This document shows positions 1 through 57,695 of a stretch of DNA of 57,695 nt, piece by piece. The stretch's first letter is position 1. The number at the start of each line of letters is the position of its first letter. The position numbers and the translations under genes were made by a program. Under the pieces are notes generated by a model. That model was not told the origin of the DNA, did not search any database, and was given only the letters and a program-made list of their open reading frames with translations. The stretch lies in assembly GCA_964560915.1 (NCBI GenBank), contig CAZLMO010000001.1, positions 1-57,695 on the forward strand. Reading direction: 5' to 3'. This DNA comes from an uncultured Oscillospiraceae bacterium (GTDB taxonomy: Bacteria; Bacillota; Clostridia; Oscillospirales; Ruminococcaceae).

Positions 1-9
1 CTTCTACAT
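1..9. repeat. terminal direct repeat CTTCTACAT (copy 1)
   Basis: First 9 nt are identical to the last 9 nt (57687-57695). This fits a circularly closed assembly or a genome-end/cos junction. Confidence 0.8.
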
Positions 10-17800: not shown

Positions 17801-19624
17801 TCCAAAGTTGCAAATGCAGACGCGGTTAAAGCACATAAGGATCTCTGGGAAAAATATGAAGAAGATGTGGCTGATGCCAAGGCAGATGCAAAGGAAAAAG
17901 CAGAACGCGAAGAAAAAAGACATGCTGATAATTTGGCTCGAATTGCGGAGGACGCAGAGAGAGACCGAATAAGTATTCGTGAACGATATGCTTCTGATCA
18001 AATGGCCATTAATGATCGTCTATTGGCCGACATTGATGCTAAAAACCAAGCGTATGAACAAGCCGTTAAATCTCGTACAAGTGCCATTTTTGGTTCGTAT
18101 GATTTGTTCGCTGTAGTTCCACATGACGTTGCTCTTACTGGAACTGGACTTTTAACAAAGTTGCAAGATCAAGTTGCTGCGGTTAGTGATTGGAAAACGT
18201 CGCTTAACGCGCTTGAAAACCGAGGCATTAGCACCGCTCTAATGGAAGAGCTTCAAGCCATGGGCCCTTCTGCAAAATCTCAAATTAAAGCCCTTCTCAC
18301 TCTTACAGATGAGCAATTAACAGAATATGATAGTTTGTTTGAGACCAAATTTGTACTTGCTAATACTATTGCTGTGGACGAGTTGGAAGGATTAAAGACC
18401 GAAACAGCTTTGGCAATACAGAGCCTCAATGCTCAAGCCGCTAATGATCTCGTTGGGTTGGAGGCAGCATTTCTTGATTCTTTAAATAGTATCGATGCAA
18501 ATCTACAGTTGGATATGGATAAATTAAACACCACCCACAATGAGGCGATGACTGTAATTGAGAACGACCTTAAAACACAACTTGGTAAACTAGTAACTGC
18601 ATGGAAAGTTGCAGATGATAAAGTTAATACCAATTTGGCAGAAGATCTTGCTGCTCTCGATGTAACCTTTAATGAATCCATGACTACGATCAATGGCGAT
18701 TTGAAAACAAAACTGGGAGAGTTAGAAACTGCATTTACAGGAACGATGAAAACGATTACGGGATTAACTGAAGCCGAACTAAACGCCTTAATTGCAGACA
18801 ATCGGGTTAAACTTACTCAATTAAACTTAGATACTGAATCAAAATTAAACGTTGTTGCGAAGACGTACGAAAAGGGTGGCGCTAAAGCAACAACGTCTTT
18901 CGATACGTCTCTTAATAACTTAATTCCCAATACCCAATCTACTCTTGGAGATTTAATGACAACGGTTAATGCCGCGTTTACAGCAGCTATTCCAGATTTT
19001 GAAACTGCTGGTCGTAATGTTGCTGCCGGGTTTGCTGATGGTATTCGCAATGGAACTTATTTAGCAATTGCCGCAGCCGAAGAGCTTGCTAGCTCGGCAG
19101 CCTCAGCTGCTAAGAAGGCGCTCGACGAACGGTCTCCTAGTAAAATCTTTGAAGGTATTGGTAGATTTGTTAGTATGGGTTTTGCAGATGGAATCTCGGA
19201 CTATGCGTATTATGCTGAAAAGGCTGCTCAAGAGATGGCACAAGGACCTCTTGCTGCGGTTTCACAAGTCTTATCCGATATGGAGGACTCAGAGGATTGG
19301 ACATTTACCATTACCCCAGTGATTGATCTAAGCGCGATTCGACCTAAAACCATACCCCAACTCTTCACTGCACCAGTTCACCTCGGCGCAACCTCAAGTA
19401 AACTTGCAGTTGAAACAATTCAAAATGGAAATAGAAAAGCACTCCAACAATCAGAGCATGCAACGAAGGAGGATCTTGTCGAACTTCGAAATTCACTGCA
19501 ACCCCGAAATCAGAAGCCGGGTATTACCCAAAATCTAACTATTAATAGTCCAAAAGCTTTAAGTCCTGCAGAAACCGCACGACAAAATCGACGCGTCTTA
19601 CAAGAGTTGGCATTAGAGTATTAA
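11855..19624 (+). CDS. tail tape measure protein (2589 aa)
   Basis: Very long ORF after the chaperone-like genes. It has hydrophobic repeat blocks, long coiled-coil-like Ala/Glu/Lys stretches, and the TMP-typical motifs GSPSRLFATIGGW and ERSPSKIFEGIGRF. Confidence 0.85.
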   Translation: MSDKIDQRIVEMSFENQKFEKGISQSKNSLKEFANALQNSDLNKGFNGLEQSVGAVSNSFSILEQIGIGALRRLGETAMNTGMNMIKSLSVDQLSAGWTKYAQKTASVQTIMNATGKSVSQVNDYLDRLMWYSDETSYGFTDMTQALGQMTSAGGNIDKLIPMITGVATATAYAGKSATEFSRVMYNLNQSYGRGYLEFRDWSSVEQAGVGGQALKQVFIDTGKALGKLNAEGRTAQGTLVNIGTFGTTLQDKWANTAVMEAAFSKFSELSEAAYKLVKDGTYETAGEAMEFLAGKYSEVAEKGFNSAQKAKTFSEAIIATMDAVSSGWMRTYEIIFGYFDEATVNFTNLSKVLWQVFASGAKERNDMLAWLKEFGGVANIFGGLKDILIGLLNVVLPISKAIDQIFPPRTKEQWLAITKSFKSFTETLIIGEETGDKIRRTFAGLFSVIDLGIQIVKFLGSAAFDVIKIFIPLGDGVLGVTASIGDFLFNVTRAIKSTGLFQYALLAIKVGAVVLRENIIRLADSVSGFITGLWNAEDPFEYIRKTGIQIFTDLLTRIKMVTNWLSVNLTKAVQNFTGLFDWKAIGENINVLPTIVAILKDAVEFIGGKAVKGFKDFSDAVDNIDFSKIATFVVGGVLLIFFKQLSDLTGAMTSFTLSVTGAINGFTKKFVGPKTTTLVRDMAFAFGVLSASLWVLSRIPAEDLNRSFVTMAKGVAVFVTAYGLLQGIQVAASNLTKNKDMATSAFGLTGIAASLLIMSFAVKNIGQIDEARIWDATMALGALLGFMTTYQILSAYISKIPNQQKVTMNLTGMSMSILTLVGALVLLDKVSFNDLQISLAKMASILAVIGSFQLLLGATARLGGGKSASTSILGVAGGIVAMIAVLKLLAFMDPQIITQSIANLGLMVLLLAGIEIIMGAAGRLGGGKKFNTDIFGAQLGLLSLTALIVVLGAINQETIDRGIISLAKMAGILGGIQIMTAGAARLAKGEKTQKILGAVTLSILTFTASIAVLGNVPQVVIDKGFLTLTKLIGLIGAIQIMTVVAAHIGGGKSTFTSLLGITASIVALTGSLILLSMIDQVALRESIKSLAIASTAIAALGFAISQISGAMNLVSKGYSGSSGFLAKVKQFGVTLLAIGGTLLAVGALLGTTVAFFGILSFLSKDIDNISWESLTKFTAGIAIVSTLMTAMALLAKPLSLVGALGKNMFSGVLVSLGALALVVIGTAGLAQLLSLLIVDATILTRGLDLLVQVGDGIGRFIGSAMGGIAGGTLESIGGSLAAFVQLLDGFSPESLQGIKALAEAILIITQSSILTGIAGFVTGTNSMDIFAKQLTQLVKAIKVVSSTDVHIASMRLADMVPMATNLKIFAEAAKGIPNSGGFVGGFMGNNNIDTFGVMLTKFVAAFGFTTPIQVTRATEVLDAMTPMAANLKIFAEAAQGIPNSGGFMGRFLGENNIDTFGTMLSGFVETLGMVPSALAVRASETLAAMKPMADNLKLFAKAAQEIPNTGGALSAFFGTIDLATFSSQVQGLTELFGTIDQTKLANATSSLSLMSTSMLPALILFSEFTNTLKASGGLAQLFSGNTTLSEFAIDLRLFIDQLHAIDFTIVGPAMDALSRITTAFETVGATVLANAKASFDNNRKPFQTSIATILHEPIRQLEGQKNTLALTIGTIFKAVLASGDPYINDFRILGGNLISGLKFGIETGKTGAVKSIETVMNAVVEAANEVVDTGSPSRLFATIGGWCTKGLAVGISKNTNIAAKAGSNLATAVEDSIRNGLDIHSISPKLRDDVGAMVPKSLVAGWEGLKGWMNNSAEQLGIDAGTITMEGVVSAVANNTGGITTGVTGLLDILTDTTRPPAEKAGEDIGNSLTEGFGNAITNDATGIKQVVKTELDKLKALIEERQFYGTITLDEELSMLQTLRLSYIEGSEERKQIDREIYSRLKTINDAQLAYINGVAKAQSDAAEAQSKLNSDRFKASKVANADAVKAHKDLWEKYEEDVADAKADAKEKAEREEKRHADNLARIAEDAERDRISIRERYASDQMAINDRLLADIDAKNQAYEQAVKSRTSAIFGSYDLFAVVPHDVALTGTGLLTKLQDQVAAVSDWKTSLNALENRGISTALMEELQAMGPSAKSQIKALLTLTDEQLTEYDSLFETKFVLANTIAVDELEGLKTETALAIQSLNAQAANDLVGLEAAFLDSLNSIDANLQLDMDKLNTTHNEAMTVIENDLKTQLGKLVTAWKVADDKVNTNLAEDLAALDVTFNESMTTINGDLKTKLGELETAFTGTMKTITGLTEAELNALIADNRVKLTQLNLDTESKLNVVAKTYEKGGAKATTSFDTSLNNLIPNTQSTLGDLMTTVNAAFTAAIPDFETAGRNVAAGFADGIRNGTYLAIAAAEELASSAASAAKKALDERSPSKIFEGIGRFVSMGFADGISDYAYYAEKAAQEMAQGPLAAVSQVLSDMEDSEDWTFTITPVIDLSAIRPKTIPQLFTAPVHLGATSSKLAVETIQNGNRKALQQSEHATKEDLVELRNSLQPRNQKPGITQNLTINSPKALSPAETARQNRRVLQELALEY
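14363..15140 (+). repeat. tape-measure internal repeat family A (about 4 units, ~62 aa each)
   Basis: Units of the form SLAKMAxILGxIQxxxGAAxRLGGGKxxxxxxLG followed by a hydrophobic helix (RLGGGKSAS, RLGGGKKFN, RLAKGEKTQ, HIGGGKSTF). Period is about 186-190 nt. Boundaries are approximate. Confidence 0.7.
15911..16665 (+). repeat. tape-measure internal repeat family B (3 clear units plus 1 degenerate, ~65 aa each)
   Basis: The three clear units are MVPMATNLKIFAEAAKGIPNSGGFVGGFMGNNNIDTFG, MTPMAANLKIFAEAAQGIPNSGGFMGRFLGENNIDTFG and MKPMADNLKLFAKAAQEIPNTGGALSAFFGTIDLATF. Boundaries are approximate. Confidence 0.75.
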
Positions 19625-31373: not shown

Positions 31374-32168
31374 ATGGACTTTAGTTCAGTGCAGCGAGGC
31401 GTAAAAAACCTCGGGGGAGTAATTTCTAAAAACAGTCCACATATTTTAACAGGGTTAGGATGCGCAGGAGTATTTACAACTGCCATTTTAACAGGCCGTG
31501 CAACTTTAAAAGCGCATACCATTTTAGAGCGAGAAGAGGAATATAGAAAAGAGCAGAATAAAGACTCTTATTCAGAACCTCTTCCCCCAATGGAAGTTGT
31601 GCAATTAACATGGAAGACCTTTGTTCCCCCAGTACTTATGGGATTAACTTCTATTGCATGTATCGTAGGGGCCAACACAATCAGTGCAAATCGCAATGCG
31701 GCTATTGCAGCGTTATATTCTTTAAGCGAGACTGCGTTTCGCGAATATAAGGACAAGGTTGTAGAAGAAGTTGGTAAAACAAAAGAACGAGCAATTCGAG
31801 ACAGCATTTCACAAGATCATATTAATGCGCGTCCGGTGAACACAAGCACCGTTATTGTCACTGGTCAGGGGGATGTACTGTGCCATGATGCGATGTCAAA
31901 AAGATATTTTAGATCCAGTCCGGAAAAAATCCGTCAGGTGGTGGCAGATTTAGACGATTTGCTTCGATTGGAGTCCTGGATACCACTTAATGAATTTTAT
32001 TATCGATTACATATGGATACATGCGATCTTGGTGCAAATTGTGGTTTTAATCCTTATAAGGGGAATGGACGAGTTGAAATTGATTATAATAGCAGCCTCA
32101 CTCCAGAGGGCATTCCTTGCCTTGAAGTTAGTGCGAAAACATATCCTAATCCAAATTGGATACCATAA
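31374..32168 (+). CDS. membrane-anchored protein, paralog A of 41177-42121
   Basis: RBS TAGGAGGA. Shares with the 41177 product P.IL.G.G..GV..T..L...ATLKA..IL.E and N.A..AAY.L.E.AF..Y...V..E.G. Resembles an uncharacterised phage family (possibly DUF6353-type; unverified). Confidence 0.6.
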   Translation: MDFSSVQRGVKNLGGVISKNSPHILTGLGCAGVFTTAILTGRATLKAHTILEREEEYRKEQNKDSYSEPLPPMEVVQLTWKTFVPPVLMGLTSIACIVGANTISANRNAAIAALYSLSETAFREYKDKVVEEVGKTKERAIRDSISQDHINARPVNTSTVIVTGQGDVLCHDAMSKRYFRSSPEKIRQVVADLDDLLRLESWIPLNEFYYRLHMDTCDLGANCGFNPYKGNGRVEIDYNSSLTPEGIPCLEVSAKTYPNPNWIP

Positions 32169-35402: not shown

Positions 35403-36290
35403 ATGCAATTAACCCCAATGCTTGGTGAAAACCTAAAGAACTATCCTATATCTGTGCTAGAGGGCAAACTCTGGCGCATGTCGGAAAAAGTTGATGGAAC
35501 CCGTAGATTATTTTATAAATCTGCGACGGCTGATATTTCGGCATGGAGCCGTGCAAATATCGAAGACCCATGGCTAAAACATATCGCAGATCATGTTAGT
35601 GCTCCGTGGTTTCCACATGACACTGTTTATGACTGCGAACTGGTAGATCGAGAATTATATTTTAAACATGCTCCAAGTTTTATTCTGAGATCTGTAACGA
35701 ACGCGAAGGCGTCACAACAGTATCCTGATAATAAAACAGATCTTATGTCGGTTTGTTTTGATATGTTCCGCCCCGGTGGAGATCTTCGTTTGGGAAGAGA
35801 GCGCGATGCCGAATTATATGCTCTGTTTAATGGAACCTCTCAGCGCGACCCAATGGTACGCGTTCCTATATTTGGAAACGTGTTTGGTGGAGATTCGGAG
35901 ACAATTCAAAAAACCATGTCTGAAGTTACCGCTCGAAATGGCGAAGGACTCATGCTTATGGATATGGGTTCTATTTATATTCCAGGCAGAAGCACTGCGC
36001 TTCTAAAGGTAAAACGACTGCAGGAGTTTATTGGTCAAGTAATTGATGTTGAAATGGCACGACCCGGAACAAAAATTGCGGGTATGATTGCGGCAGTTGT
36101 CTGTATTGTAGACGGTTGTACGGTGCCTGTTCGAGTTGGTACGGGATTTAACAATTCCGAAAGAATCGCCATGGTAAACGATTCACCAATTGGGAAAAAG
36201 ATTGAAATCGAAGCGTTTTCATATTCTCAAGATAAACGCGGCGCGGTCTCTTTAAATCTACCAGTATTTAAACAATTTGTAGGAGGATAA
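35403..36290 (+). CDS. lig: ATP-dependent DNA ligase
   Basis: Nucleotidyltransferase motifs are present: I EKVDGTR, III VYDCELV, IV GEGLMLMD and V ALLKVKR. A compact T7-like size of 295 aa. Confidence 0.85.
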   Translation: MQLTPMLGENLKNYPISVLEGKLWRMSEKVDGTRRLFYKSATADISAWSRANIEDPWLKHIADHVSAPWFPHDTVYDCELVDRELYFKHAPSFILRSVTNAKASQQYPDNKTDLMSVCFDMFRPGGDLRLGRERDAELYALFNGTSQRDPMVRVPIFGNVFGGDSETIQKTMSEVTARNGEGLMLMDMGSIYIPGRSTALLKVKRLQEFIGQVIDVEMARPGTKIAGMIAAVVCIVDGCTVPVRVGTGFNNSERIAMVNDSPIGKKIEIEAFSYSQDKRGAVSLNLPVFKQFVGG

Positions 36291-41176: not shown

Positions 41177-42121
41177 ATGAATTTCAAGGCAATAATGGGC
41201 GGAGTATCGTACACATTGAAAAAATACGCACCGGAGATTCTCCTCGGAGTGGGTATTACCGGCGTAGTTGTTAGCACAGTATTATCGTGCAAAGCAACTC
41301 TCAAAGCGGAAGCCATTCTAGACGAACACGCAGAACAAAGTGAACGCATTGACGACTGCGTATTGGTTCGCGAAACCTCGGACGTTAACTACTCAATTCA
41401 AGAAGAAAAACATGATCGATTGGTTCTTTTATCAGCAACCGGAGGAAAGTTTATTCGGTTATATGGTCCCAGTGGAACCCTTATGTTGTTTTCTCTCGGG
41501 TGCATTCTTGCATCTTATCGTATCATGAGAACTCGAAATGTTGCGCTTATGGCAGCGTACAAACTCATGGAAGAAGCCTTCATGAATTACAGAAAACGAG
41601 TATCCGCTGAACTTGGCGACCGTGCCGACAGTCATTTTCTGTATGGAGAAGAAATGGTTGAAGGTACTGCTCGCACTGTTACCGAAGAAGATGGTACAGA
41701 ACATGAAATGATGGTTGTAAAAAATAACCTTAGTGGGTTCCATCGCTTCTTTGAAGCAGAAAAACCTAATCAAATTGGTGGTTGGACCGGATCAACTCAG
41801 TGGAGCAAAGTTCATGAGTACAATCTTAGTTTTCTCGAACATAAAGAAGAACATTTCACCAATATGCTCGCTGTTCGAGGCCTTGTGACCATGAATGACG
41901 TATTTTCTGAACTTGGTTTTGAGCCAACAGAGGCTGGGATGGTTGTTGGATGGAAGTATAACTCCGAACGAGGCGACAATTATATTTCATTTAGACCTCG
42001 CAACGTTGACGGAAACTGGGCATTTGGACAAAACGGATGCGGGATTCTTCTTGATTTTAACTTTGATGGGGTTGTCTTTGATCCAACGGTTGCTCGTAAA
42101 GAGGTAAAACAAATCAAATAA
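41177..42121 (+). CDS. membrane-anchored protein, paralog B of 31374-32168
   Basis: RBS GAAGGAGGAAA. For the shared motifs see 31374-32168. Confidence 0.6.
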   Translation: MNFKAIMGGVSYTLKKYAPEILLGVGITGVVVSTVLSCKATLKAEAILDEHAEQSERIDDCVLVRETSDVNYSIQEEKHDRLVLLSATGGKFIRLYGPSGTLMLFSLGCILASYRIMRTRNVALMAAYKLMEEAFMNYRKRVSAELGDRADSHFLYGEEMVEGTARTVTEEDGTEHEMMVVKNNLSGFHRFFEAEKPNQIGGWTGSTQWSKVHEYNLSFLEHKEEHFTNMLAVRGLVTMNDVFSELGFEPTEAGMVVGWKYNSERGDNYISFRPRNVDGNWAFGQNGCGILLDFNFDGVVFDPTVARKEVKQIK

Positions 42122-42858: not shown

Positions 42859-43371
42859 ATGGAACAAATACCAACAACGTCCGATAGTCAACGTAAGATG
42901 CTAGACGAAGGCGTCTTCATATTAAAAGATAGTGGTGAACGAATGGTATTTCCAAGCGGTGCTGTACGTGATATTCAAGAAGGAAAGGGTCGCTGTGATC
43001 TTCTTCCTTTAGATATTGTAGGCCGTATTGTTGGAGGCTCGGAACTTAAGAATATTGAAAAATTTAAAAAAGATAAAGATGTTGAGCACTTATTCGCCGC
43101 GATTCTTGATTTTTCCGATAGAACCGGAATGGACATTTGCACATTAATGTTAGAAGCAAGTAAACAATTTGAAAGTGGAGCTATAAAATATGGCGACAAT
43201 AATTGGAAATTGGGTATGGATTTACATTGTTATATTAGTTCTGGGTCGCGCCATTTGCTTCAATATATACGCGGGGACGTAGATGAGCCGCACGATCGTG
43301 CCTTTGTATGGAATATGATATGCGCGATTTGGACGATTACCTATTTACCAGACTTTGATGATATTAAATAA
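42859..43371 (+). CDS. putative dATP/dGTP diphosphohydrolase-like domain protein
   Basis: GAIKYGDNNWKLGM...SGSRHLLQY...DEPHDRAFVWNMICAIW resembles the phage nucleotide pyrophosphohydrolase N-terminal domain (DUF5664-type). From memory; unverified. Confidence 0.4.
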   Translation: MEQIPTTSDSQRKMLDEGVFILKDSGERMVFPSGAVRDIQEGKGRCDLLPLDIVGRIVGGSELKNIEKFKKDKDVEHLFAAILDFSDRTGMDICTLMLEASKQFESGAIKYGDNNWKLGMDLHCYISSGSRHLLQYIRGDVDEPHDRAFVWNMICAIWTITYLPDFDDIK

Positions 43372-43898: not shown

Positions 43899-44159
43899 AT
43901 GAAAATGGGCATTAGCATCTTTCCTGTAGGTCAAAAAATATCAGTTATTCTCGTTAAAACTTCAAATTCCGTTGAGGCGGAGGCGATATATCTCGGCGCT
44001 CACGCTTTTAAAGAGGCCGGAAAGATAATTAGTGATCCAGATCAAAAGTTAAACGTTCGTATAACCAATGTGCATTTCCACTACATCGAGGATCTTGAAG
44101 AGGGCCCTCAATATTCGGTACATATCGACGGAGAGGTTGTGAAAAGTGAAAAACACTAA
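43899..44159 (+). CDS. hypothetical protein (86 aa)
   Basis: ORF with a GGGTGGG RBS-like sequence. The exact start is uncertain (43899 or 43905). Confidence 0.4.
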   Translation: MKMGISIFPVGQKISVILVKTSNSVEAEAIYLGAHAFKEAGKIISDPDQKLNVRITNVHFHYIEDLEEGPQYSVHIDGEVVKSEKH

Positions 44160-45093
44160 CTTCCGTCCCCCCGAATCCTTTCTACCAAATACCGAAAGCA
44201 CTCTAGTTCTTGTGGATTGGGCAAACCTTATGTATCGTGCCTGGTTTGTATCAAGAGAACAGCCGTGGGTAGCATTTTGTAAGTTCTTTGATATGCTCCG
44301 CTTGTGTATACACAAGTCTAAACAACCCAACGTTCCAATAAATGTGATATTTGCGGGCGAAAGTCGGACAATACTAAAGCGTACACAACTTTTCTCCGAG
44401 TACAAAGGTACTCGAAAGCGCCCAAAAAATGAGGATTTCGTGATATTTCGTAAAACAATTGAAAGTTATATTGAAAAGCTTGGATACGTGTTGGTTAGAA
44501 TTGGTGGTGCTGAAGCGGACGATGTTATTGCAAGTATTGTACAGCAGGTTTGTTATCGTCCATCAGTCAACTGTACATCCGGATCTAAAAATACGACGGA
44601 CGTTATAATATTCTCTGGAGATCGAGATCTACAACAACTTCTGGCCTGGGAAAGGGTTTTGATATATCGAGCACCGGGGTTATTTGTTGATGTGGCGACT
44701 TTTGAAGAAGAAAACGGTATTCCAATCGAAAAATATTGTATTTATAAAGCTTTACTTGGGGATAAGTCGGACAACATACTCGGGGTAAAGGGATTTGGTC
44801 CTGTTAAGGCAAAAAAATCAATTAATGAAAACTCGGTTGCGGCGGATGTTTGGGACAGTGGTGGTCATGAGGCGGCTTCAACATTTAAGTTAGCACTTAA
44901 TTTAGTTAACTTAGATACAAAATTAGATATTAATTTTGCCAATCTTTATATTGGGGCGCCAAAGTTTGACGAAAAACAGTTCGATGCAAAGTTAGACCGA
45001 CGTGTTTTATTTGAAATTAAAAGATTTGCAGAGGAGTTTGATACAAATGAGTCTGGGGCGCAATCGATTACCGACCCAACAACAGTGTTATAG
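44146..45093 (+). CDS. 5'-3' exonuclease / flap endonuclease (Pol I N-terminal-type)
   Basis: LVLVDWANLMYRAWF, GGAEADDVIASI, FSGDRDLQQL and LLGDKSDNILGVKGFGPVKA match the FEN/5'-3' exonuclease motifs. Confidence 0.8.
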   Translation: MKNTNFRPPESFLPNTESTLVLVDWANLMYRAWFVSREQPWVAFCKFFDMLRLCIHKSKQPNVPINVIFAGESRTILKRTQLFSEYKGTRKRPKNEDFVIFRKTIESYIEKLGYVLVRIGGAEADDVIASIVQQVCYRPSVNCTSGSKNTTDVIIFSGDRDLQQLLAWERVLIYRAPGLFVDVATFEEENGIPIEKYCIYKALLGDKSDNILGVKGFGPVKAKKSINENSVAADVWDSGGHEAASTFKLALNLVNLDTKLDINFANLYIGAPKFDEKQFDAKLDRRVLFEIKRFAEEFDTNESGAQSITDPTTVL

Positions 45094-47017: not shown

Positions 47018-47018
47018 T

Positions 47019-47045: not shown

Positions 47046-47077
47046 ACGATAGTTCAAAACAATAGGAGGAATTTAAA

Positions 47078-47167: not shown

Positions 47168-47222
47168 CTTATAGAAACTAGGGAGACTTGTTAGGGTTGA
47201 CGTACGGAAGAAAGGAGATATC

Positions 47223-47774: not shown

Positions 47775-47925
47775 GAATGGTGATACGAAATTACGTGTTT
47801 TTCACTCCTGTTATATTTATTCGTAGATTTTTTTTTATTAAAAATATTATATAGAGTAATAGGGAAATGTTACAAAAACGTGTAATTTTGAAACAGAGAT
47901 AAATATACAGAAAGGAGGATAAGTT
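47775..47925 (+). promoter_or_regulatory. AT-rich intergenic region with imperfect inverted repeat (candidate regulatory/origin region)
   Basis: GAAATTACGTGTTTTT (47787-47802) and AAAAACGTGTAATTTT (47874-47889) are inverted copies matching at 14 of 16 positions, both containing ACGTGT. T9 and A/T tracts lie between them. The region sits directly upstream of the replicase gene. Confidence 0.25.
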
Positions 47926-50900
47926 TTGGACTTCATTAAGGTCTATACGCGAGAGTCTAAGAATACGAGTAAAAATCGCGATGCTGGAACAACCGAGGTT
48001 TCTATCGATTTTAAAGTGTTTAATACTAAAGATTTAATGACCCGCGGTCACTCTTTTTATGCGGTTTATGATCCTAGTAAAACATTATGGTCTAAAGATG
48101 AAATGGCAGTTGTTCAACTCGTTGATGCAGAAATTATGAAAGTTGTTAATAAACTCCAAGAAGCAGACAAGCCCGTTACTTACGGATTGATGGAAGACTA
48201 CCAATCCGGTAATTGGCAAAAATATACCTCTTATATTAAAAACATGCCAGATAACTGGGTCCCTCTCGATGAAAAGATTCATTTTGCTAATGACAAACTT
48301 ACTCGAGATTCACATGCGACTCGTCGACTTCCGTACTCTCGTCAAGCCGGATCAATTGAAAACTATGATAAACTTATGTCAGTTTTATATTCTCCAACAG
48401 AACGGGATAAACTCGAGTGGGCTGTTGGGGCAATTTTAACCGGCGATAGTAGACATATTCAAAAATTTATCACTCTATATGGAACTACAGGAAGTGGAAA
48501 GTCTACTTTTCTTAATATTGTACAGAAACTTGTCGAAGGGTACTATATCTCATTTAACGCAAAATCGTTGGTTGGAAATGATGCATTTGGAGCAGAAATA
48601 TTTAAGTTTAATCCTTTAGTTGCTATCCAACACGATGGTGATTTATCAAAAATTGAAGATAATAGTACCCTTAATTCTATCATTTCTCATGAAGATATTG
48701 TAATCAACGAAAAACATAAATCTAAATACACTTATCGATCCTTATGTTTCTTATTTCTTGGAACAAATAAACCGGTGGCCATTTCAGACTCAAAGTCAGG
48801 ATTACTCAGAAGATTAATTGATGTACATCCATCTGGAGAGAAGGTCTCAAAAAATGAATATTCACGATTGGTAAAAAATATTAATTTTGAATTGGGCGCG
48901 ATTGCGGACTATTGCATTGTTAAATATTTAAAAATGGGAGAAGACTATTATCAAAACTACCAACCAAAGGAGATGATGTTTGAAACCAACACATTATATA
49001 ATTTTGTATTTGAGAATTTTTTAGTTCTTGAAAATGGTGAATACTTTCAATTACGACAATTATATGATATGTATAAACGGTATTGTGACGATAGTGGAGA
49101 ACAGTTTCCTTTAAAGAAGCGCGTGTTTCGTGCTGAAATGAAATCATATTTTGAATCGTTTCACGATATTGCTAGACTTGATGATGGTAAGCAAGTTCGC
49201 TCTATCTATCGCGGATTTAAAGGTGATATTTTCAATCCAGGTCAAAAAGACAAAGACGCCGAACCAGTCGATACGGGGTGGTTACACATCGACAAAACAG
49301 AATCATTGTTTGATAAAACTTTTGCGAATATTCCTGCGCAATACGCCAATGATGCGGGTACCCCAGAACATCGCTGGGTTAATTGCTCCACAACTCTTAA
49401 AGATGTTGATACTTCCAAACTTCATTATGTGTTAGGAATGCCTGAAAACCATATAGTTATTGATTTTGATATTCCTGGAGATGATGGAGAAAAATCGTTA
49501 GTTAAGAACTTAGAAGAAGCTAATAAATGGCCGCCAACGTATTCGGAACTTAGTAAATCCGGAGCAGGAATACATCTTCATTATATGTGGGAAGGAGGAA
49601 GAGTCTCCGAACTTAAGCGACTATATGCTCCTGGAATTGAAGTTAAGGTTTTTACTGGAAACTCTAGTTTGCGTAGAAAATTAACTTGGTGTAACACAGA
49701 ACCAATTGCTTGTCTTACCTCTGGGCTCGAATATGATGAAAAGAAAGGAGGAGATACTTTGTTGAATAAGAAAAACGTTGAAGACGAAAAGCATTTACGA
49801 ATAATGATCAAAAAATGTATGAATAAAGAGTTTCATGGATTTACTAAGCCAGAATGCGAGTTCATATATAAACTTCTTTCCGAAGCATATTCAAGCGGAA
49901 TGGTATATGATGTAAGTGATATGCGGGCCTCTGTTTTTGCATTTGCTGCATCCTCTTCACACCAAGCAGCAGCTTGCATCGACTTGGTGAATAAAATGAA
50001 GTGGGCATCAGAAGTCACACAAACGATTGGACCTCTTGCTGATGATAATGGAGAGATAGTATTTTATGACGTCGAGGTCTTTAAAAATTTATTTCTTATC
50101 TGCTATAAACTTAGAGGAAAGGGTCGAAAAATTGTTACATTAGTTAATCCCTCTCCATCAGAAGTAGGAAAACTATTCGGATTAAAACTCGTTGGTTATA
50201 ATAATAAGCGGTATGACGATCATATACTGTATGGGCGTTATCTTGGATACACGAATGAACAACTTTATGAGTTAAGTAAGAAAATCATTTCAAAAGAAGG
50301 ATCTGTTCATAGTGGATTTAGAGAAGCATATAATATTGCATTCACAGACATTTATGATTTCTGTTCAGAGAAAAAATCTCTTAAAAAATGGGAAATCGAG
50401 TTAGGGATTCCACATCAAGAATTAGAATTTGCCTTTGATGAACCTATTCCAGAAAAGTATTGGCCAAAAGTAATTGAATATTGCTCGAATGATGTTGTCG
50501 CATCTGAGGCGGTATTTGAACATCGGTATGCCGATTGGATCGCAAGAGAAATCTTGGCCGATTTAGCAGGCGGAACACCGAACATGACCACCAATCAATT
50601 GACTACAAGAATCGTGTTTGGAAACGATCGGAACCCCCAACTTGAGTATACTAACCTTGAAGAACTTTTCCCTGGATACGAGTTTGTGCGTGGCGACGAC
50701 AATAAAATGCATAACATGTATCGCGGAACAGATGTCGGTATGGGTGGCTACGTCTATGCGGAGCCAGGAATGTATTATGAAACAGCACTTCTGGATATTC
50801 AGAGTATGCATCCAACCAGTCTTATTAATATGAATTATTTTGGTAAGTACACACAGCGATATGCAGATCTTAAAGATGCTCGCGTAGCAATTAAAAACGG

Positions 50901-51891
50901 AAACTTTATTATGGCTAGAGCGATGCTTGATGGTAAATTGGCTCGATATTTAGATGATGAAAGTCAAGCAGAGGGACTATCATATGCATTAAAAATTGCA
51001 CTAAACAGTGCGTATGGTTTAACTAGTGCTTCATTTGATAATCCGATGAGAGATCGACGAAATAGTAATAATATTGTTGCTTTGCGGGGTGCGTTATTCA
51101 TGCGAACATTACAAGATGCGGTGCAAGCACGTGGGTTTACCGTAGCGCATATTAAGACCGACTCCATTAAAATTCCAAACGCAACTCCCGAAATTATTAA
51201 TTTTTGTAAAGAGTTTGCTCAGCAATATGGGTATATATTTGAGCACGAGGCAACATATGAAAAGTTTTGTTTAGTAAACAATGCTGTTTATATCGCTAAG
51301 TATGGTTGGGCTATGAAAAGAAATAAGATTGGAACATGGTCGGCCACTGGAGCGCAGTTCGCCGAGCCATTTTTATTCAAGAAGCTATTTTCAAAAGAAC
51401 CAATTGTGTTTGACGATTATAAGCAAACCAAAAGCGTTACCTCTCCTGCAGTAATGTATTTAGATTTCAACGAAGGTCTCCCAAAAGATGAGCATAATTA
51501 TCTTCATGTTGGCCGCGTTGGATCGTTTGTTCCTGTAGTCGATGGTGTTGGGGGTGGCGTTCTTTTACGCAAGAGCGGAGATACCTATACATCAGTCACC
51601 GGAACGAAAGGATATCGATGGAAAGAGAGCGAGGTTGTTAAAGCACTTGGAAATGAAGACCAAATTGCGTTATCATATTTTTATCGATTAATGGATGCCG
51701 CAATTACGTCAATAAAAACGTATGGCGCCATTTCAGATTTTTTAGATGATTGGGGGGAAACCGATGAGGAAGCAGACTATCCTATAGGTTTTAATGATAT
51801 CCCTCCGCTTCCTACCGTTGCATACGGTGTACTTATGAAAGAAGGAGACGATTATTATGGCTCAGACCGACAACCTAGAAGTGCGAATTGA
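47926..51891 (+). CDS. fused replicase: SF3 (D5/P4-like) helicase + AEP primase-polymerase-like domain + family B DNA polymerase with 3'-5' exonuclease
   Basis: TTG start after AAAGGAGGA. The P-loop is GTTGSGKST (aa ~186). The AEP motifs are VIDFD and SGAGIHLHY (aa ~510-552). The exonuclease motifs are YDVEVF, YNNKRYDDHIL and YCSNDV. PolB motif A is LDIQSMHPTS, motif B is KIALNSAYG and motif C is HIKTDSIKI. Confidence 0.75.
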   Translation: MDFIKVYTRESKNTSKNRDAGTTEVSIDFKVFNTKDLMTRGHSFYAVYDPSKTLWSKDEMAVVQLVDAEIMKVVNKLQEADKPVTYGLMEDYQSGNWQKYTSYIKNMPDNWVPLDEKIHFANDKLTRDSHATRRLPYSRQAGSIENYDKLMSVLYSPTERDKLEWAVGAILTGDSRHIQKFITLYGTTGSGKSTFLNIVQKLVEGYYISFNAKSLVGNDAFGAEIFKFNPLVAIQHDGDLSKIEDNSTLNSIISHEDIVINEKHKSKYTYRSLCFLFLGTNKPVAISDSKSGLLRRLIDVHPSGEKVSKNEYSRLVKNINFELGAIADYCIVKYLKMGEDYYQNYQPKEMMFETNTLYNFVFENFLVLENGEYFQLRQLYDMYKRYCDDSGEQFPLKKRVFRAEMKSYFESFHDIARLDDGKQVRSIYRGFKGDIFNPGQKDKDAEPVDTGWLHIDKTESLFDKTFANIPAQYANDAGTPEHRWVNCSTTLKDVDTSKLHYVLGMPENHIVIDFDIPGDDGEKSLVKNLEEANKWPPTYSELSKSGAGIHLHYMWEGGRVSELKRLYAPGIEVKVFTGNSSLRRKLTWCNTEPIACLTSGLEYDEKKGGDTLLNKKNVEDEKHLRIMIKKCMNKEFHGFTKPECEFIYKLLSEAYSSGMVYDVSDMRASVFAFAASSSHQAAACIDLVNKMKWASEVTQTIGPLADDNGEIVFYDVEVFKNLFLICYKLRGKGRKIVTLVNPSPSEVGKLFGLKLVGYNNKRYDDHILYGRYLGYTNEQLYELSKKIISKEGSVHSGFREAYNIAFTDIYDFCSEKKSLKKWEIELGIPHQELEFAFDEPIPEKYWPKVIEYCSNDVVASEAVFEHRYADWIAREILADLAGGTPNMTTNQLTTRIVFGNDRNPQLEYTNLEELFPGYEFVRGDDNKMHNMYRGTDVGMGGYVYAEPGMYYETALLDIQSMHPTSLINMNYFGKYTQRYADLKDARVAIKNGNFIMARAMLDGKLARYLDDESQAEGLSYALKIALNSAYGLTSASFDNPMRDRRNSNNIVALRGALFMRTLQDAVQARGFTVAHIKTDSIKIPNATPEIINFCKEFAQQYGYIFEHEATYEKFCLVNNAVYIAKYGWAMKRNKIGTWSATGAQFAEPFLFKKLFSKEPIVFDDYKQTKSVTSPAVMYLDFNEGLPKDEHNYLHVGRVGSFVPVVDGVGGGVLLRKSGDTYTSVTGTKGYRWKESEVVKALGNEDQIALSYFYRLMDAAITSIKTYGAISDFLDDWGETDEEADYPIGFNDIPPLPTVAYGVLMKEGDDYYGSDRQPRSAN

Positions 51892-52351
51892 CAACGCTCA
51901 AGTAATGTTTCGAAACTTTGCAGGGATAGCTAAAAAGTTTAATCAACCTGGCGATAGGAATTTTTGCATATTCCTGTCCGATGAGGTTGCTAAAAAGTTA
52001 GCGAAAGATGGATGGAATATTCGCTGGCTTACTTCGCGATCAGAAGAACCACCGCAGGCAATGCTTGCTGTGAAAGTTAATTTTGGAAACCGCCCACCAA
52101 ATATTGTAGTGGTGTCAGATGGAAAAATGACAAAACTCACGGAAGCCACAATTAAAGAACTTGACTTTGCCGAATTTAAGCAGGTCGATCTTATTCTAAG
52201 AGGTTATAAGTGGGACGTAAGTGGACAAAAAGGAGTAAAAGCCTATCTTAAATCTGGGTATTTTGTTCTTGTAGTTGATGAGTTGGCAAAGAAATACTCA
52301 ACTACCAGCGATTCTGACCAAGAGGAAGTTGTGGAATATGCAATAGAATAA
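51857..52351 (+). CDS. putative ssDNA-binding protein (T7 gp2.5-like)
   Basis: 164 aa between the polymerase and helicase genes. OB-fold-like pattern and an acidic C-terminal tail (SDSDQEEVVEYAIE). From memory of the gp2.5/DUF2815-type layout. Confidence 0.45.
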   Translation: MAQTDNLEVRIDNAQVMFRNFAGIAKKFNQPGDRNFCIFLSDEVAKKLAKDGWNIRWLTSRSEEPPQAMLAVKVNFGNRPPNIVVVSDGKMTKLTEATIKELDFAEFKQVDLILRGYKWDVSGQKGVKAYLKSGYFVLVVDELAKKYSTTSDSDQEEVVEYAIE

Positions 52352-52380
52352 GTTAGAAAATATGAAAAGGAGGTGAGAGT

Positions 52381-53583
52381 TTGAACATACAACTTACTGA
52401 ATATCAGGTTGAGGCCGTTGAGAAAATGCATAATGGTTGTATTCTGCGAGGCGGTACGGGTTCTGGGAAAACTCTTACCTCTTTAGTTCATGTATTTGAA
52501 AAAATTTTGAAAGGCAGTTCCCCTTTATATCCGGGGCACACATATAAGAAAGCCGCTGTTAACCTTTCCATATATGTTATTACTACTCCAAAAAAACGGG
52601 ACAGTCTTGATTGGACCAGAGAAGCGGCTCTTGTTCCTATAGGTCTTACGGTTGTTGATTCGTGGAATAATATTAAAAAATATGAGCATCTTAAAAACGC
52701 CGTATTTATTTTTGATGAGTCAAAAGTTATTGGGTATGGAGCATGGACGCAGTCGTTTCTTAAAATTACGAGACATAATGCGTGGATGCTTTTATCTGCA
52801 ACGCCAGGAGACACTTGGTTAGAATATATGCCAGTATTCATTGCCAATGGATTTTATAAAAACAAAACCGAATTTGAGCGAGAGCATGTGATGTGGAGTC
52901 GCTTCTCTAAATATCCAAAGGTTGAACGATATCTTGGTATATCTCGTTTAATTCGTCAACGAGATCTTATTACGGTGGATATGGGAGACCAACGAGCAAC
53001 AACGCAACACCATAAGGACGTGCTTTGTGATTTTAACGCAATTCATTATGAAATACTAGCAAAGGATAGATGGAACCTCTTTGAAAATAAACCAATTCGA
53101 GACATATCGCAGCTATGCTTTGCGCTTCGTAAGGTTGTAAATTCTGACGAATCAAGACTTGCCGCCCTCTCTACCATTTATGCTAGACATAAGAAAGTAA
53201 TCGTTTTCTATAACTTTAACTATGAATTAGAACTACTTCGCAGTTGGTGCGATTCTAATAAAATTGTGTATTCTGAATGGAATGGCCGTAATCATGACGA
53301 CTTACCCACAAGTCCACTTTGGGTATATCTTTGCCAATACACGGCCGCAAAAGAAGCATGGAATTGTATTGAAACTGATTGTATTGTATTTTATTCGCAA
53401 ACCTACTCATACAAGGCCCTTGTGCAGTCAGCGGGAAGAATTGATAGGATGAACACCACCTTCTTACATTTATACTATTATCATCTAATATCCTCTGCAC
53501 CAATTGAATTAGGCATACAAAAAGCTTTATATCATAAAGAAAACTTTAATGAAGGGCGTTGGCTTATGGCCGAAAGCTCTTAA
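52381..53583 (+). CDS. SF2 (SNF2/DEAD-like) helicase
   Basis: TTG start after AAAGGAGGTGAG. Walker A GGTGSGKT, Walker B-like IFDES, SAT-like motif LSATPG, and a C-terminal QSAGRIDR motif VI. Confidence 0.7.
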   Translation: MNIQLTEYQVEAVEKMHNGCILRGGTGSGKTLTSLVHVFEKILKGSSPLYPGHTYKKAAVNLSIYVITTPKKRDSLDWTREAALVPIGLTVVDSWNNIKKYEHLKNAVFIFDESKVIGYGAWTQSFLKITRHNAWMLLSATPGDTWLEYMPVFIANGFYKNKTEFEREHVMWSRFSKYPKVERYLGISRLIRQRDLITVDMGDQRATTQHHKDVLCDFNAIHYEILAKDRWNLFENKPIRDISQLCFALRKVVNSDESRLAALSTIYARHKKVIVFYNFNYELELLRSWCDSNKIVYSEWNGRNHDDLPTSPLWVYLCQYTAAKEAWNCIETDCIVFYSQTYSYKALVQSAGRIDRMNTTFLHLYYYHLISSAPIELGIQKALYHKENFNEGRWLMAESS

Positions 53584-53585
53584 TC

Positions 53586-53612: not shown

Positions 53613-53676
53613 GAGTAAGGTGTCGCTAAACCAGCGCATCTTCTTTTCTTATATTTTTTGAGAAAGGAGCGTGGCT

Positions 53677-53979
53677 ATGGCTAAAAAAGAGTCTGAATTT
53701 AAGGGTAAACTCTATAAAGAAATCCGGGAACGATTCCCAGGAGCTGAAGTTCTTCCAAATGATCCTAACTATCTTCAAGGGATTCCCGACGCAACGGTCT
53801 TTTTTCCAAACGGGAGATATGTTATGCTTGAGAGCAAAAAAGCTGCGACCTCAAAAAAACAACCAAACCAAGAATACTATGTATACGAATCTCCTTTAAG
53901 TAAAAACGCAATGTTTGCATGCCCCGACAATCGCAAAGAAGTTCTTACTGAACTAGAAAGGAGATATCATTTGCAGTGA
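53677..53979 (+). CDS. PD-(D/E)xK nuclease (VRR-NUC / resolvase-like)
   Basis: ATG lies 7-8 nt after AAAGGAG. GIPDATVFF...VMLESKK fits the D...ExK motif. Confidence 0.45.
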   Translation: MAKKESEFKGKLYKEIRERFPGAEVLPNDPNYLQGIPDATVFFPNGRYVMLESKKAATSKKQPNQEYYVYESPLSKNAMFACPDNRKEVLTELERRYHLQ

Positions 53980-54524
53980 AATTTAATTATCATTCAAATC
54001 TTGAAGGCACTCATGCTTTTCTTTCTCCTAGTCGATATTCGTGGGTCAATTATGATGAGCAAAAACTAGATTCCGTCTATGCTAATTGGCGCGCTTCGCA
54101 GCTAGGCACCGAGCTCCATGAGCTTGCCTCTAAACTGATCAATCTTGGTGTTAAATTACCAAAAACCAATAAAACATTAAACATGTATGTCAATGATGGA
54201 ATTGGTTTTCGAATGTCGACCGAGGTATGTTTGTTTTATTCGATTAATGCCTTTGGTACAGCCGATGCAATATCTTTTAAAAATAATACCCTTCGTATTC
54301 ACGATTTAAAAAATGGTCGAACCCCGGCATCTATTAAACAATTGGAGATCTATACCGCTTTGTTCTGTCTCGAATACAGCTTTAATCCGCGCGATATTGA
54401 TATTGAACTTCGCCTTTATCAATTGGACGAGGTGCTTGTTTCAAACCCCATTCCTGAAGATATTTTATTTATTATGGAACGAATTATGGTGTTTGACAAA
54501 AGGATAAACGACATTAAAGAATAG
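53976..54524 (+). CDS. PD-(D/E)xK family nuclease (recombination exonuclease-like)
   Basis: GTG start overlapping the upstream stop. GTADAISF...IHDLKNG fits the D...D-x-K motif. Confidence 0.4.
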   Translation: MKFNYHSNLEGTHAFLSPSRYSWVNYDEQKLDSVYANWRASQLGTELHELASKLINLGVKLPKTNKTLNMYVNDGIGFRMSTEVCLFYSINAFGTADAISFKNNTLRIHDLKNGRTPASIKQLEIYTALFCLEYSFNPRDIDIELRLYQLDEVLVSNPIPEDILFIMERIMVFDKRINDIKE

Positions 54525-54540: not shown

Positions 54541-57411
54541 ATGGCATATTTAAAGCATTTCGGCACCCCTCGACATAGTGGTCGATATCCTTGGGGTTCC
54601 GGAAAAGATCCTCAAAGATCTAAATCGTTTGCCACTCGTGTATCTGAGTTAAAAAAAGAAGGCCTATCCGAAGCCGAAATTGCTAAAGGTTTTGGATTTA
54701 AAACAACAACGGAGCTTCGTGCAAAAATACATACTGAATCAGAATCACGATATGCAGCGCAAGCGGCCATGGCCTCTCGATTAAGGGCTAAAGGAAATTC
54801 CGATGTCGCAATTGCCAGAAGAATGAACGTTAGTCCTAACACCGTTAAGAATTTACTTCTTCCTGAAACAAAAGAGCGGCATAAGGCAACCGAAGCCACT
54901 ATGGAAATGTTACAAGCGGCAGCGGATAAAAAGGGTATGGTTGACATTGGTACAGCAGCTAATTTAAGAATTGGGGTAACAAAAACAAAATTAGATGTTT
55001 CTGTTTTACAACTGCAAGAAAAAGGATATGTTGCTGTTGCCATTCAAACCCCTCAACTTGGAACCTCTAATAAGACAACCGTTCGTTCTTTACTTTCACC
55101 CGCAACCATGGAGAAAGCTAGAGCCGAATACGTTATAAAAGATCCAGATAAATGGCGAAGATTAACTCCACAAGAACAAGAAGCAAAAATTGCGTATTTA
55201 TATGCTTCTAAACATGCAGATGAAATTCGTCTAATTGACGACTGGACCTCTGATGGTGGACTTACATATAAACAAGTAAAGCCGCCAGTCTCGATCGATT
55301 CAAAACGTATTATGGTTCGTTTTAGTGATGATAACCCTTCTGGTGCAAGTATGGACGGAACTATACAAGTAAGAAGAGGCGTTCCAGACTTAGCCCTTCC
55401 ACCCGACAAACACTATGGTCAAGCACGTGTTGCTGTTGACGGAACACATTATATGAAGGGTATGGTTATTTATGCATATGAAGACATGCCGCCTGGCATT
55501 GATGTTATTTATAACACAAATAAAGACTCTTCTGTAGGGAAACTTGGTGCTCTGAAAAAAATGAACACGGTGTTGGATACCGAAGATGGTGGCGCAATAT
55601 TCATTGATAAAGAGGGTAAACAAAAAATTAATGAATTTGGCGCTTCAATTCGTCAAACTACATATATCGATAAGAAGGGAAAAGAACAACTATCTGCTCT
55701 AAACATCGTTGGCTTTGTTGGAAAAACAGATTCTGGTGTAGAAGGCGGATGGGAAACCTGGAGTAAGACCCTTTCTAGCCAATTTTTATCGAAACAAAAT
55801 TCCGAACTTGCTAAACAACAACTCAATTTGGCCTATTTGGATCAAAAAGACACATTCGATTCGTATGCCCAAATTACACAACCCGCTGTTAAGCAGCGAT
55901 TATTAGATGCATTTGCTGACGACTGTGATTCTAAAGCCGTTCATTTAAAGGCTGCTGCTTTACCTCGACAAACATCAAATGTTATTATTCCAATCATGTC
56001 ATTAAAAAAGAATGAATGCTATTCTCCTAACTATAGAGATGGAGAACAGCTGGTTCTAATTCGTTATCCGCATGCAGGAACCTTTGAAATTCCCGTTGTT
56101 ACAAATAACTTACGAAATAAAGAAGCCAAGGCCGTTTTAGGTGGTGGATTAGATGGTCTTGGAATTACACCGCATGCTGCGGAGCAATTATCTGGTGCGG
56201 ACTTTGACGGCGATACAGTCATTGCGATTCCATATAACCCAAAAACGATTGCGATCTCTCCTATAAACAAAAGCCTTTCTGATTTTACCGAAACCTATCG
56301 AAAACAATATGCTAAAGTTCCAGGCATGGCCGTTATTACAACAAAACAAAAGGGTCAAGAAATGGGTAGAGTATCAAATCTTATTACGGATATGACAATT
56401 AAGGGCGCAACAGTTGATAAGATTGTTAGAGCAGTTAAGCATTCAATGGTGGTTATAGATGCCGAGAAGCACGAACTGAACTATACCCAGTCCTATATTG
56501 ATAATGGGATAGCTGAATTAAAGGTTGAATATCAAGGAGGCACGCTTACAAATCCAAGAGGTGCTTCAACATTAGTTAGTCGAGCTTCTTCAGAACAACG
56601 CGTTGACAAAAGAAAAGCCCTTACTAAAGAAGAGGCTCTTGCAACCGGTCGCACTCTTATTAGAAAAAATGCCTATTCCGTCGATGTCAATACCGGCGAG
56701 AAAGTCTACATCCCTACTGGTGATGGTTATACAAATAAAAAAGGGAAGTTTATTAAGTCGCAAATCAAATCAACAAAGATGGCCGAAGTTTCAGATGCTC
56801 GAAAACTTATGAGTTCTCCTGCCACTCCGATTGAAATCATCTATGCCGATTATGCCAACTCAATGAAAGCGCTTGGCAATAAAGCTCGAAAAGAGTCAGC
56901 TAACATTAAAATGACTGCTTATGACCCATCTGCTAAAAAAGCATATGCTCCCGAAGTTGCCGCACTTAACAAAAAATTAAAGGTCGCTTTAGCTAATGCC
57001 CCACTTGAGCGACAGGTGCATCTTATCGGTAATAAAAAACTTCGAACAACCATAGATGCGAACAACAACATGGATGCAAGTCAAATTAAGAAACTAAAAG
57101 GTCAAATCTTGGCGCAAACACGAGAACTGGTTGGAGCAAAGAAAACACCAATTCAGATTACTCAATCGGAATGGCATGCGATTGAATCTGGTGCAATCAG
57201 TAATGCTCTATTAAAACAAATCTTAGATAATACAAATTTGGATGTTGTACAATCATATGCAACTCCGCGAACTAGAGTTCTCATGTCTCCAAGTAAGGTT
57301 GCCCGTGCTAAGATATACCGTGCTCAAGGAAGAGAGATGTCCGAAATCGCAGAAGCGCTCGGCGTTTCGGTTTCCACTTTATCTCAATCACTGAAAGGAG
57401 AAGGGTCATGA
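54541..57411 (+). CDS. single-polypeptide two-barrel RNA polymerase (YonO/RdRP-like) with HTH-like termini
   Basis: The beta-like barrel signature THYMKGMVIYAYEDMPPGIDVIYNTN spans nt 55444-55521. The beta-prime-like signature LVLIRYPHAGTFEIPVV...SGADFDGDTVIAIPY spans nt 56050-56235, with DFDGD at 56200-56214. HTH-like segments are NSDVAIARRMNVSPNTVKNLL (aa 86-106) and REMSEIAEALGVSVSTLSQSL (aa ~931-951). The N-terminal motif KHFGTPRHSGRYPWGSG is related to the head-module paralogs. Confidence 0.65.
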   Translation: MAYLKHFGTPRHSGRYPWGSGKDPQRSKSFATRVSELKKEGLSEAEIAKGFGFKTTTELRAKIHTESESRYAAQAAMASRLRAKGNSDVAIARRMNVSPNTVKNLLLPETKERHKATEATMEMLQAAADKKGMVDIGTAANLRIGVTKTKLDVSVLQLQEKGYVAVAIQTPQLGTSNKTTVRSLLSPATMEKARAEYVIKDPDKWRRLTPQEQEAKIAYLYASKHADEIRLIDDWTSDGGLTYKQVKPPVSIDSKRIMVRFSDDNPSGASMDGTIQVRRGVPDLALPPDKHYGQARVAVDGTHYMKGMVIYAYEDMPPGIDVIYNTNKDSSVGKLGALKKMNTVLDTEDGGAIFIDKEGKQKINEFGASIRQTTYIDKKGKEQLSALNIVGFVGKTDSGVEGGWETWSKTLSSQFLSKQNSELAKQQLNLAYLDQKDTFDSYAQITQPAVKQRLLDAFADDCDSKAVHLKAAALPRQTSNVIIPIMSLKKNECYSPNYRDGEQLVLIRYPHAGTFEIPVVTNNLRNKEAKAVLGGGLDGLGITPHAAEQLSGADFDGDTVIAIPYNPKTIAISPINKSLSDFTETYRKQYAKVPGMAVITTKQKGQEMGRVSNLITDMTIKGATVDKIVRAVKHSMVVIDAEKHELNYTQSYIDNGIAELKVEYQGGTLTNPRGASTLVSRASSEQRVDKRKALTKEEALATGRTLIRKNAYSVDVNTGEKVYIPTGDGYTNKKGKFIKSQIKSTKMAEVSDARKLMSSPATPIEIIYADYANSMKALGNKARKESANIKMTAYDPSAKKAYAPEVAALNKKLKVALANAPLERQVHLIGNKKLRTTIDANNNMDASQIKKLKGQILAQTRELVGAKKTPIQITQSEWHAIESGAISNALLKQILDNTNLDVVQSYATPRTRVLMSPSKVARAKIYRAQGREMSEIAEALGVSVSTLSQSLKGEGS

Positions 57412-57650: not shown

Positions 57651-57695
57651 TATCATACCGGGGGGGGTCTATTTATCACACCCCCTCTTCTACAT
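57651..57695. other. genome-end region with G8 / C5 tracts (candidate cos/packaging region together with 1-121)
   Basis: A G8 run (57660-57667) and CCCCC lie 13 nt apart. Across the junction there is GAGGGTCC and the palindrome GCCCCGGGGGC followed by T6 (31-47). G/C tracts stand out in an otherwise AT-rich non-coding stretch directly upstream of the terS-like gene. Confidence 0.35.
57687..57695. repeat. terminal direct repeat CTTCTACAT (copy 2)
   Basis: Identical to nt 1-9. Confidence 0.8.

Follow-up and report, generated by a model that had tools for sequence, protein, structure and literature searches.

A probable GP55-type helicase-primase-polymerase encoded on a phage contig from an uncultured Oscillospiraceae assembly

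Can one polypeptide combine helicase, primase and polymerase, and is such an enzyme new? These questions are raised by an open reading frame (ORF) at positions 47926 to 51891 of contig CAZLMO010000001.1 (assembly GCA_964560915.1, assigned to an uncultured Oscillospiraceae bacterium). The stretch analysed, positions 1 to 57,695 of the forward strand of this contig, is called the window here. A preliminary description of this DNA had read the ORF product as a fusion of a helicase, an archaeo-eukaryotic primase (AEP)-like domain and a DNA polymerase of family B (PolB), and had considered the three-way fusion unusual. We conclude that the ORF product is very probably the replicative enzyme of a phage of the siphovirus type and a member of the HelPrimPolB family, of which GP55 of Lactococcus phage 1706 is the exemplar. 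The product is called the replicase below; the ORF and its ribosome-binding signal are located as follows.

47926..51891, + strand: complete ORF of 1321 amino acids plus stop, with a TTG start, encoding a HelPrimPolB/GP55-type replicase for which four activities are predicted by analogy with GP55
47913..47918, + strand: Shine-Dalgarno sequence AGGAGG, 7 nucleotides upstream of the TTG, read directly from the sequence

The similarity extends over almost the entire chain. Residues 1-1279 of the replicase match positions 1-1291 of the 1304 in profile phrog_4210, annotated as 'DNA polymerase' (1698 bits), and in a BLASTP comparison residues 1-1267 align end to end with GP55 (37% identity, 820 bits). 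The two proteins are of near-equal length (1317 residues in GP55, 1321 in the replicase) and colinear, with the helicase, the PriS-like AEP, a helical domain called aHD and the exonuclease-PolB in the same order. From its amino- to its carboxy-terminus, the replicase consists of a conserved N-terminal region, a superfamily 3 (SF3)/D5-like helicase carrying Walker A and B motifs, sensor 1 and an arginine finger, a PrimPol-type (PriS-like) AEP with its catalytic motifs positioned C-terminal to the helicase, the four-helix aHD with the Tyr and Phe that are essential in GP55, and a PolB with an intact DnaQ-type exonuclease (ExoI to ExoIII), motifs A and B, and a divergent motif C.

GP55 has been purified and described as a 'four-in-one replicase' (Zhang et al. 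NAR 2025, PMC12205980). Its DNA polymerase activity is absent from the D949A mutant, its 3'-5' exonuclease activity from D712A/E714A, its UTP/dTTP-dependent helicase activity from K189A, and its RNA primase activity, which prefers 5'-CCAAC-3' and initiates with GTP, from D509A; aHD is essential, and Y655 and F667 are required in priming (PMC12205980). The enzyme is a dimer and replicates M13 single-stranded DNA (ssDNA) de novo (PMC12205980). All residues whose mutation inactivates GP55 are identical in the replicase. Invariance of motif residues was judged in two alignments, of 41 family members and again of 47; the residues validated in GP55, listed here, are invariant across the 47 sequences.

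GP55 K189, replicase K192: identical
GP55 D509, replicase D515: identical
GP55 Y655, replicase Y661: identical
GP55 F667, replicase F673: identical
GP55 D712/E714, replicase D715/E717: identical
GP55 D949, replicase D957: identical

The conservation of these residues predicts for the replicase the four activities of GP55: DNA polymerase, 3'-5' exonuclease, helicase and RNA primase.

Some observations weigh against the assignment. Identity to the characterised GP55 is 37% overall and 23% in the N-terminal 150 residues. No significant Pfam PolB or AEP model was found for the replicase, because the family is so divergent, and the fold matches of the modelled AEP region have low TM-scores (0.25-0.35), their alignments taking in a differently placed helical domain. 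Divergence from GP55 is strongest in the N-terminal 150 residues and in the thumb/C-terminal part (28% identity), and the disordered tail of the replicase is unrelated; the hosts of the two phages also differ. The replicase is a diverged additional member of a known, characterised family. Its closest cultured relative is found in Faecalibacterium phage FP_oengus (49% identity), and a megablast search of window positions 40000-57695 against phage genomes gave no match and thus no close sequenced relative in that collection, so that relatives were sought by protein comparison.

The fusion itself is not novel, contrary to what had been implied. Kazlauskas et al. (NAR 2016, PMC4889955) described the architecture for phage 1706 gp55 and listed it with one other known fusion of helicase, primase and polymerase. 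The group was later named HelPrimPolB and assigned to the EpsilonN-like PolB clade, within which it is divergent; "profound" differences were noted for its motif C and KxY motif, as was its prevalence in metagenomes (Kazlauskas et al. NAR 2020, PMC7544198). With the fusion catalogued in 2016, named in 2020 and its four activities shown for GP55 in 2025, the present ORF carries little weight as a discovery. The placement of the helicase N-terminal to the AEP, also remarked upon beforehand, is indeed the minority order, since 94% of the fusions between primase and helicase have the primase N-terminal (Kazlauskas et al. NAR 2016, PMC4889955). As a further member, the replicase bears out the family-wide fixation of the catalytic residues, of the accessory helical domain and of the K-T-D-S motif C. 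Its practical value is confined to correct gene annotation and to providing a further candidate for engineering self-priming polymerases. Public names of close relatives include 'DUF5906 domain-containing protein [Alphaproteobacteria bacterium]', 'hypothetical protein' and 'energy-coupling factor transporter ATP-binding protein EcfA2'; these names are uninformative or wrong, and annotation at the family level lags behind the literature.

Could the long ORF be an artefact of assembly or a frameshift, merging separate helicase-primase and polymerase genes? Beyond the general caution due to a metagenome-type contig, no grounds for this were found. The reading frame is uninterrupted over positions 47926..51891, and the M-D-F start is shared by homologues, including GP55. 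Among the 120 best database homologues, 116 from independent assemblies are colinear and have lengths of 1250-1350 residues. A match spanning at least 80% of the replicase is present in 252 records of the phage collection, as a single gene wherever annotation is shown, and GP55 is active when purified as a full-length recombinant protein (Zhang et al. NAR 2025, PMC12205980). The colinear, full-length homologues of like length rule out an artefact, to which we assign practically no probability; the single 1321-residue chain proposed previously is of typical length for the family.

The intact chain is divided as follows (all on the + strand).

47926..48375, + strand: N-terminal region, residues 1-150, conserved in the family, with invariant F44, Y45, W55, D67 and Y137
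48376..49245, + strand: SF3 (D5/P4-like) helicase, residues ~151-440, with Walker A/B, sensor-1 N281, R295/R296 and a Pox_D5 C-terminal winged-helix region
49273..49746, + strand: PrimPol-type (PriS-like) AEP catalytic domain, residues ~450-607, with motif I D513-x-D515, motif II S545-G-x-G-x-H550 and candidate motif III E572, all invariant
49786..49995, + strand: four-helix domain (aHD), residues ~621-690, with helices 192-204, 211-228, 235-246 and 252-261 in the numbering of the AlphaFold2 model
50056..50625, + strand: DnaQ-like 3'-5' exonuclease subdomain of PolB, residues ~711-900, with invariant ExoI D715/E717, ExoII D764 and ExoIII Y852/D856
50626..51759, + strand: family B polymerase palm, fingers and thumb, residues ~901-1278, with motif A D957, motif B K1023-x3-N-S-x-Y-G and motif C H1075-x-K1077-T-D1079-S
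51760..51888, + strand: variable C-terminal tail, residues 1279-1321, predicted to be disordered (pLDDT below 50) and not conserved

Every motif quoted in the preliminary description was found in the sequence at its given position. The motifs are listed with the invariant residues of each, together with further invariant residues of the helicase.

Residues 186-194: Walker A, GTTGSGKST; invariant G186, G189, G191, K192, T194
Walker B: invariant D237, D239
SF3 sensor 1: invariant N281
Arginine finger of the helicase: invariant R295/R296
Residues 511-515: AEP, VIDFD; invariant D513, D515
Residues 545-553: AEP, SGAGIHLHY; invariant G548, H550, and further along E572 (candidate motif III)
Residues 714-719: exonuclease, YDVEVF; invariant ExoI D715, E717
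Residues 758-768: exonuclease, YNNKRYDDHIL; invariant ExoII N759, Y763, D764
Residues 852-857: exonuclease, YCSNDV; invariant ExoIII Y852, D856
Residues 956-965: PolB motif A, LDIQSMHPTS; invariant D957, S960
Residues 1023-1031: PolB motif B, KIALNSAYG; invariant K1023, N1027, Y1030, G1031
Residues 1075-1083: PolB motif C, HIKTDSIKI; invariant H1075, K1077, T1078, D1079, S1080

The helicase is readily recognised. Pfam models match at residues 184-296 (DUF5906, E=3.9e-13) and 354-411 (Pox_D5 C-terminal region, E=1e-5), and the family profile, compared with the PDB, matches the helicase half of the primase-helicase 7ola over residues 152-437 (E=6.8e-9). For the N-terminal 150 residues of the replicase, Pfam gave no significant match; in GP55 the equivalent region is included in the 'helicase domain', to which residues 1-439 are assigned (Zhang et al. 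NAR 2025, PMC12205980).

The AEP is scarcely detected by sequence methods: two weak PHROG matches (E about 0.006) were obtained, and neither Pfam, searched with the whole protein, nor the family profile against the PDB gave any AEP match. Residues 430-700 were therefore modelled with AlphaFold2 on an alignment of 45 homologues, with a mean pLDDT of 85.3. In a Foldseek search of the PDB with this model, the ten best matches are all PrimPol-type AEPs (NrS-1 N300 and pRN1 ORF904), with E values of 2e-4 to 3e-3 and probabilities of 0.92-1.0; the next match, at E=0.36, leads into unrelated proteins. The weak or missing sequence matches would suit a degenerate, non-catalytic block serving as a structural linker, with priming being protein-primed or intrinsic to the PolB, as in piPolB. 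We consider this very improbable: the significant fold matches are exclusively PrimPol AEPs, the DxD motif, the sGxGxH motif and the third acidic residue are invariant in the 47 sequences, and GP55 D509A lacks both RNA primer synthesis and de novo synthesis (PMC12205980). The fold result, the invariant motifs and the mutant phenotype all contradict an inactive AEP, a reading that we reject.

The AEP catalytic domain is followed by aHD, in which Y661 and F673 align with Y655 and F667 of GP55 and are invariant in the homologue alignment.

A model of residues 690-1321 (pLDDT 86.2, pTM 0.79) gave 201 PDB matches at E<=1e-3 in a Foldseek search. Family B polymerases (9°N, KOD, Tgo, Pol alpha and E. 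coli Pol II) account for all of the top matches, with E values of 2e-15 to 1e-12 over about 700 alignment columns, covering both the exonuclease and the polymerase. E. coli Pol II was also matched by the family profile across motifs A to C (E=5.7e-6), while a single-sequence search of the PDB gave no more than a borderline match to Pol II (E=0.06). Pfam found nothing significant in the C-terminal 191 residues of the replicase, and the 3' end of the ORF overlaps the start of the next gene (51857) by 35 nucleotides.

The previously proposed domains thus hold: the N-terminal D5/P4-type (SF3) NTPase is supported by DUF5906, Pox_D5 and the 7ola profile match, the AEP-like block by the ten PrimPol folds, and the DnaQ-type exonuclease and family B polymerase by the 201 fold matches and the Pol II profile match. 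What had been overlooked is aHD (residues ~621-690), which GP55 needs for priming.

In motif C, the first acidic residue is replaced by a lysine, giving KTDS instead of DTDS. The replacement had been pointed out correctly, but it is not confined to the replicase, since H-x-K-T-D-S is invariant throughout the family and the GP55 motif reads H-V-K-T-D-S, with the same lysine as K1077. Groups without the first Asp were formerly deemed inactive (Kazlauskas et al. NAR 2020, PMC7544198), and K1077 in place of this canonical residue might be taken to mean that the PolB is impaired or specialised, for example as a scaffold without activity, comparable to the C-terminal half of Pol epsilon, or as a translesion enzyme of the archaeal PolB2 kind, leaving bulk synthesis to the AEP or a host polymerase. 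However, GP55, which has the same H-x-K-T-D-S, is an efficient polymerase at 1.25 nM that takes minutes to replicate M13 ssDNA, and the motif A mutation D949A abolishes its activity (PMC12205980); piPolBs are likewise active despite missing the first Asp (PMC7544198). Motifs A and B, the second motif C Asp and all exonuclease motifs are also invariant. An impaired or specialised PolB is hence hardly likely, and an inactive one, which we reject, is contradicted by the activity of GP55 with the same motif and by the precedent of active piPolBs.

Because the enzymatically active GP55 has it too, the motif C lysine is a fixed family trait compatible with polymerase activity; it is not a peculiarity of one sequence and does not prevent catalysis. 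The GP55 paper makes no mention of this lysine (PMC12205980), and Kazlauskas 2020 notes only the divergence of the motif (PMC7544198). There is a small chance that K1077 marks a mechanistically distinct active site, for instance in catalysis or in dealing with RNA-primer termini, or that the N-terminal ~150 residues form a module for origin recognition or a loader. Both points concern the family as a whole and not the window in particular; in either case the family would amount to more than standard modules strung together.

Transposing the properties of GP55 to the replicase, the AEP and aHD would synthesise short RNA primers on exposed ssDNA, and the PolB would extend them, perhaps with one subunit of a dimer taking over from the other; in GP55, primer hand-off also works in trans between molecules (PMC12205980). 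The exonuclease would proofread, and the helicase would unwind DNA by NTP hydrolysis (of UTP/dTTP in GP55), giving strand displacement. At 37% identity, the replicase may deviate from GP55 in the nucleotides it prefers, in the site its primase recognises and in its oligomeric state, for which SF3 membership would lead one to expect a hexamer. Judging from the gene content of the window, a FEN-type exonuclease and an ATP-dependent ligase presumably mature the lagging strand, and an ssDNA-binding protein would also take part.

Other systems share single modules with the replicase. Poxvirus D5 and phage P4 alpha-type primase-helicases, and the SaPI5 primase-helicase (7ola), likewise join a primase to an SF3 NTPase whose C-terminal winged-helix region is of the D5 type. 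Their primase, however, lies N-terminal to the helicase and they lack a polymerase, whereas in the replicase the AEP comes after the helicase and a PolB is appended. Membership in the D5/P4 type was considered and rejected: the AEP (residues 450-607) is C-terminal to the helicase (residues 151-440), the PolB comes next, and only the helicase module is common. The closest solved folds for residues 450-607 are those of the NrS-1 phage primase-polymerase (NrSPol) and the PrimPol pRN1 ORF904, which have the AEP motifs and a helicase fusion in common with the replicase. In NrSPol and ORF904 a single AEP active site both primes and extends, and the accessory domain is a six-helix bundle; in the replicase, extension is assigned to a separate PolB by analogy with GP55, and the accessory domain, with four helices, is unrelated to that bundle. 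The other known single-polypeptide helicase-primase-polymerase fusion, Pas55 of Actinoplanes phage phiAsp2, combines an SF3 helicase with a DnaG primase and PolA (PMC4889955); its DnaG/TOPRIM primase and family A polymerase are not homologous to the modules of the replicase. The sole trait shared with piPolB is the lost first Asp of motif C (PMC7544198). Membership in piPolB was also rejected, as a conserved AEP is fused to the PolB and de novo synthesis by GP55 needs the AEP and NTPs (PMC12205980).

The replicase lies in a window in which 68 of the 69 ORFs are on the + strand and which contains genes for a terminase, a portal, a tape measure protein and tail fibres. The first nine nucleotides of the window (1..9, CTTCTACAT) are the same as the last nine (57687..57695), and a run of eight G residues is present near the 3' end. 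The terminal identity, the common strand of all but one ORF and the full set of structural and replication genes suggest that the window is a complete siphovirus-type phage genome, circularly closed or terminally repeated. Further genes that would suit RNA-primed replication around the replicase are given below.

35403..36290, + strand: ATP-dependent DNA ligase (phrog_114, PF01068), candidate sealer of Okazaki fragments, about 12 kb upstream of the replicase
44146..45093, + strand: FEN-type 5'-3' exonuclease (PF02739, PF01367, phrog_107), candidate remover of RNA primers
51857..52351, + strand: phage ssDNA-binding protein gene (PF24083, E=5.6e-50), directly downstream of the replicase
52381..53583: superfamily 2 (SF2) helicase
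53671..53979: VRR-NUC-like endonuclease
53976..54524: exonuclease (phrog_3953), which we read as Cas4/RecB-like

Only the ssDNA-binding protein gene adjoins the replicase. Further downstream, the genes are arranged in parallel to those of phage 1706 between gp66 and gp75, with a gp75-like polymerase encoded at 54541..57411, and the phage 1706 neighbourhood similarly contains an ssDNA-binding/annealing protein, an SF2 helicase, nucleases and the gp75-like RNA polymerase. A related metagenomic contig (L002, JGI Ga0498930_0001796) encodes an 81% identical replicase in the same local synteny, ssDNA-binding protein gene included.

The gp75-like protein (54541..57411, + strand) has 956 residues, is 33% identical to gp75 of phage 1706 and matches phrog_4291, 'RNA-dependent RNA polymerase', with 1020 bits. 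It contains a GADFDGDT motif and has helix-turn-helix or sigma-70 region 4-like matches at both ends. We take the GADFDGDT motif to resemble DxDGD, which binds metal in RNA polymerase beta' and in enzymes of the YonO/QDE-1 type. The phage thus probably encodes its own single-subunit RNA polymerase, into which DNA-binding domains are built.

A very long tape measure protein of 2589 residues is encoded at 11855..19624 on the + strand (phrog_4372, phrog_1686); going by the usual relation to protein length, the tail would be unusually long.

A 170-residue ORF at 42859..43371 (+ strand) has a dATP/dGTP diphosphohydrolase N-terminal (MazZ-like) domain (E=6.6e-12); positions 1195-2124 of contig L002 encode a version of 309 residues. 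A genome containing the modified base 2-aminoadenine, which the MazZ-like domain brought to mind, was dropped from consideration, there being no PurZ-type gene among the larger ORFs of the window. Paralogous DUF6353 genes are present in the early/replication region at 31374..32168 and 41177..42121, both on the + strand (E=5.6e-67 and 2.8e-55). The replication region of the related contig (Ga0498930_0001796, L002:181-546) also contains a small gene with an Acb2/Tad1 hairpin domain; Acb2/Tad1 proteins are a family of anti-CBASS and anti-Thoeris nucleotide sponges.

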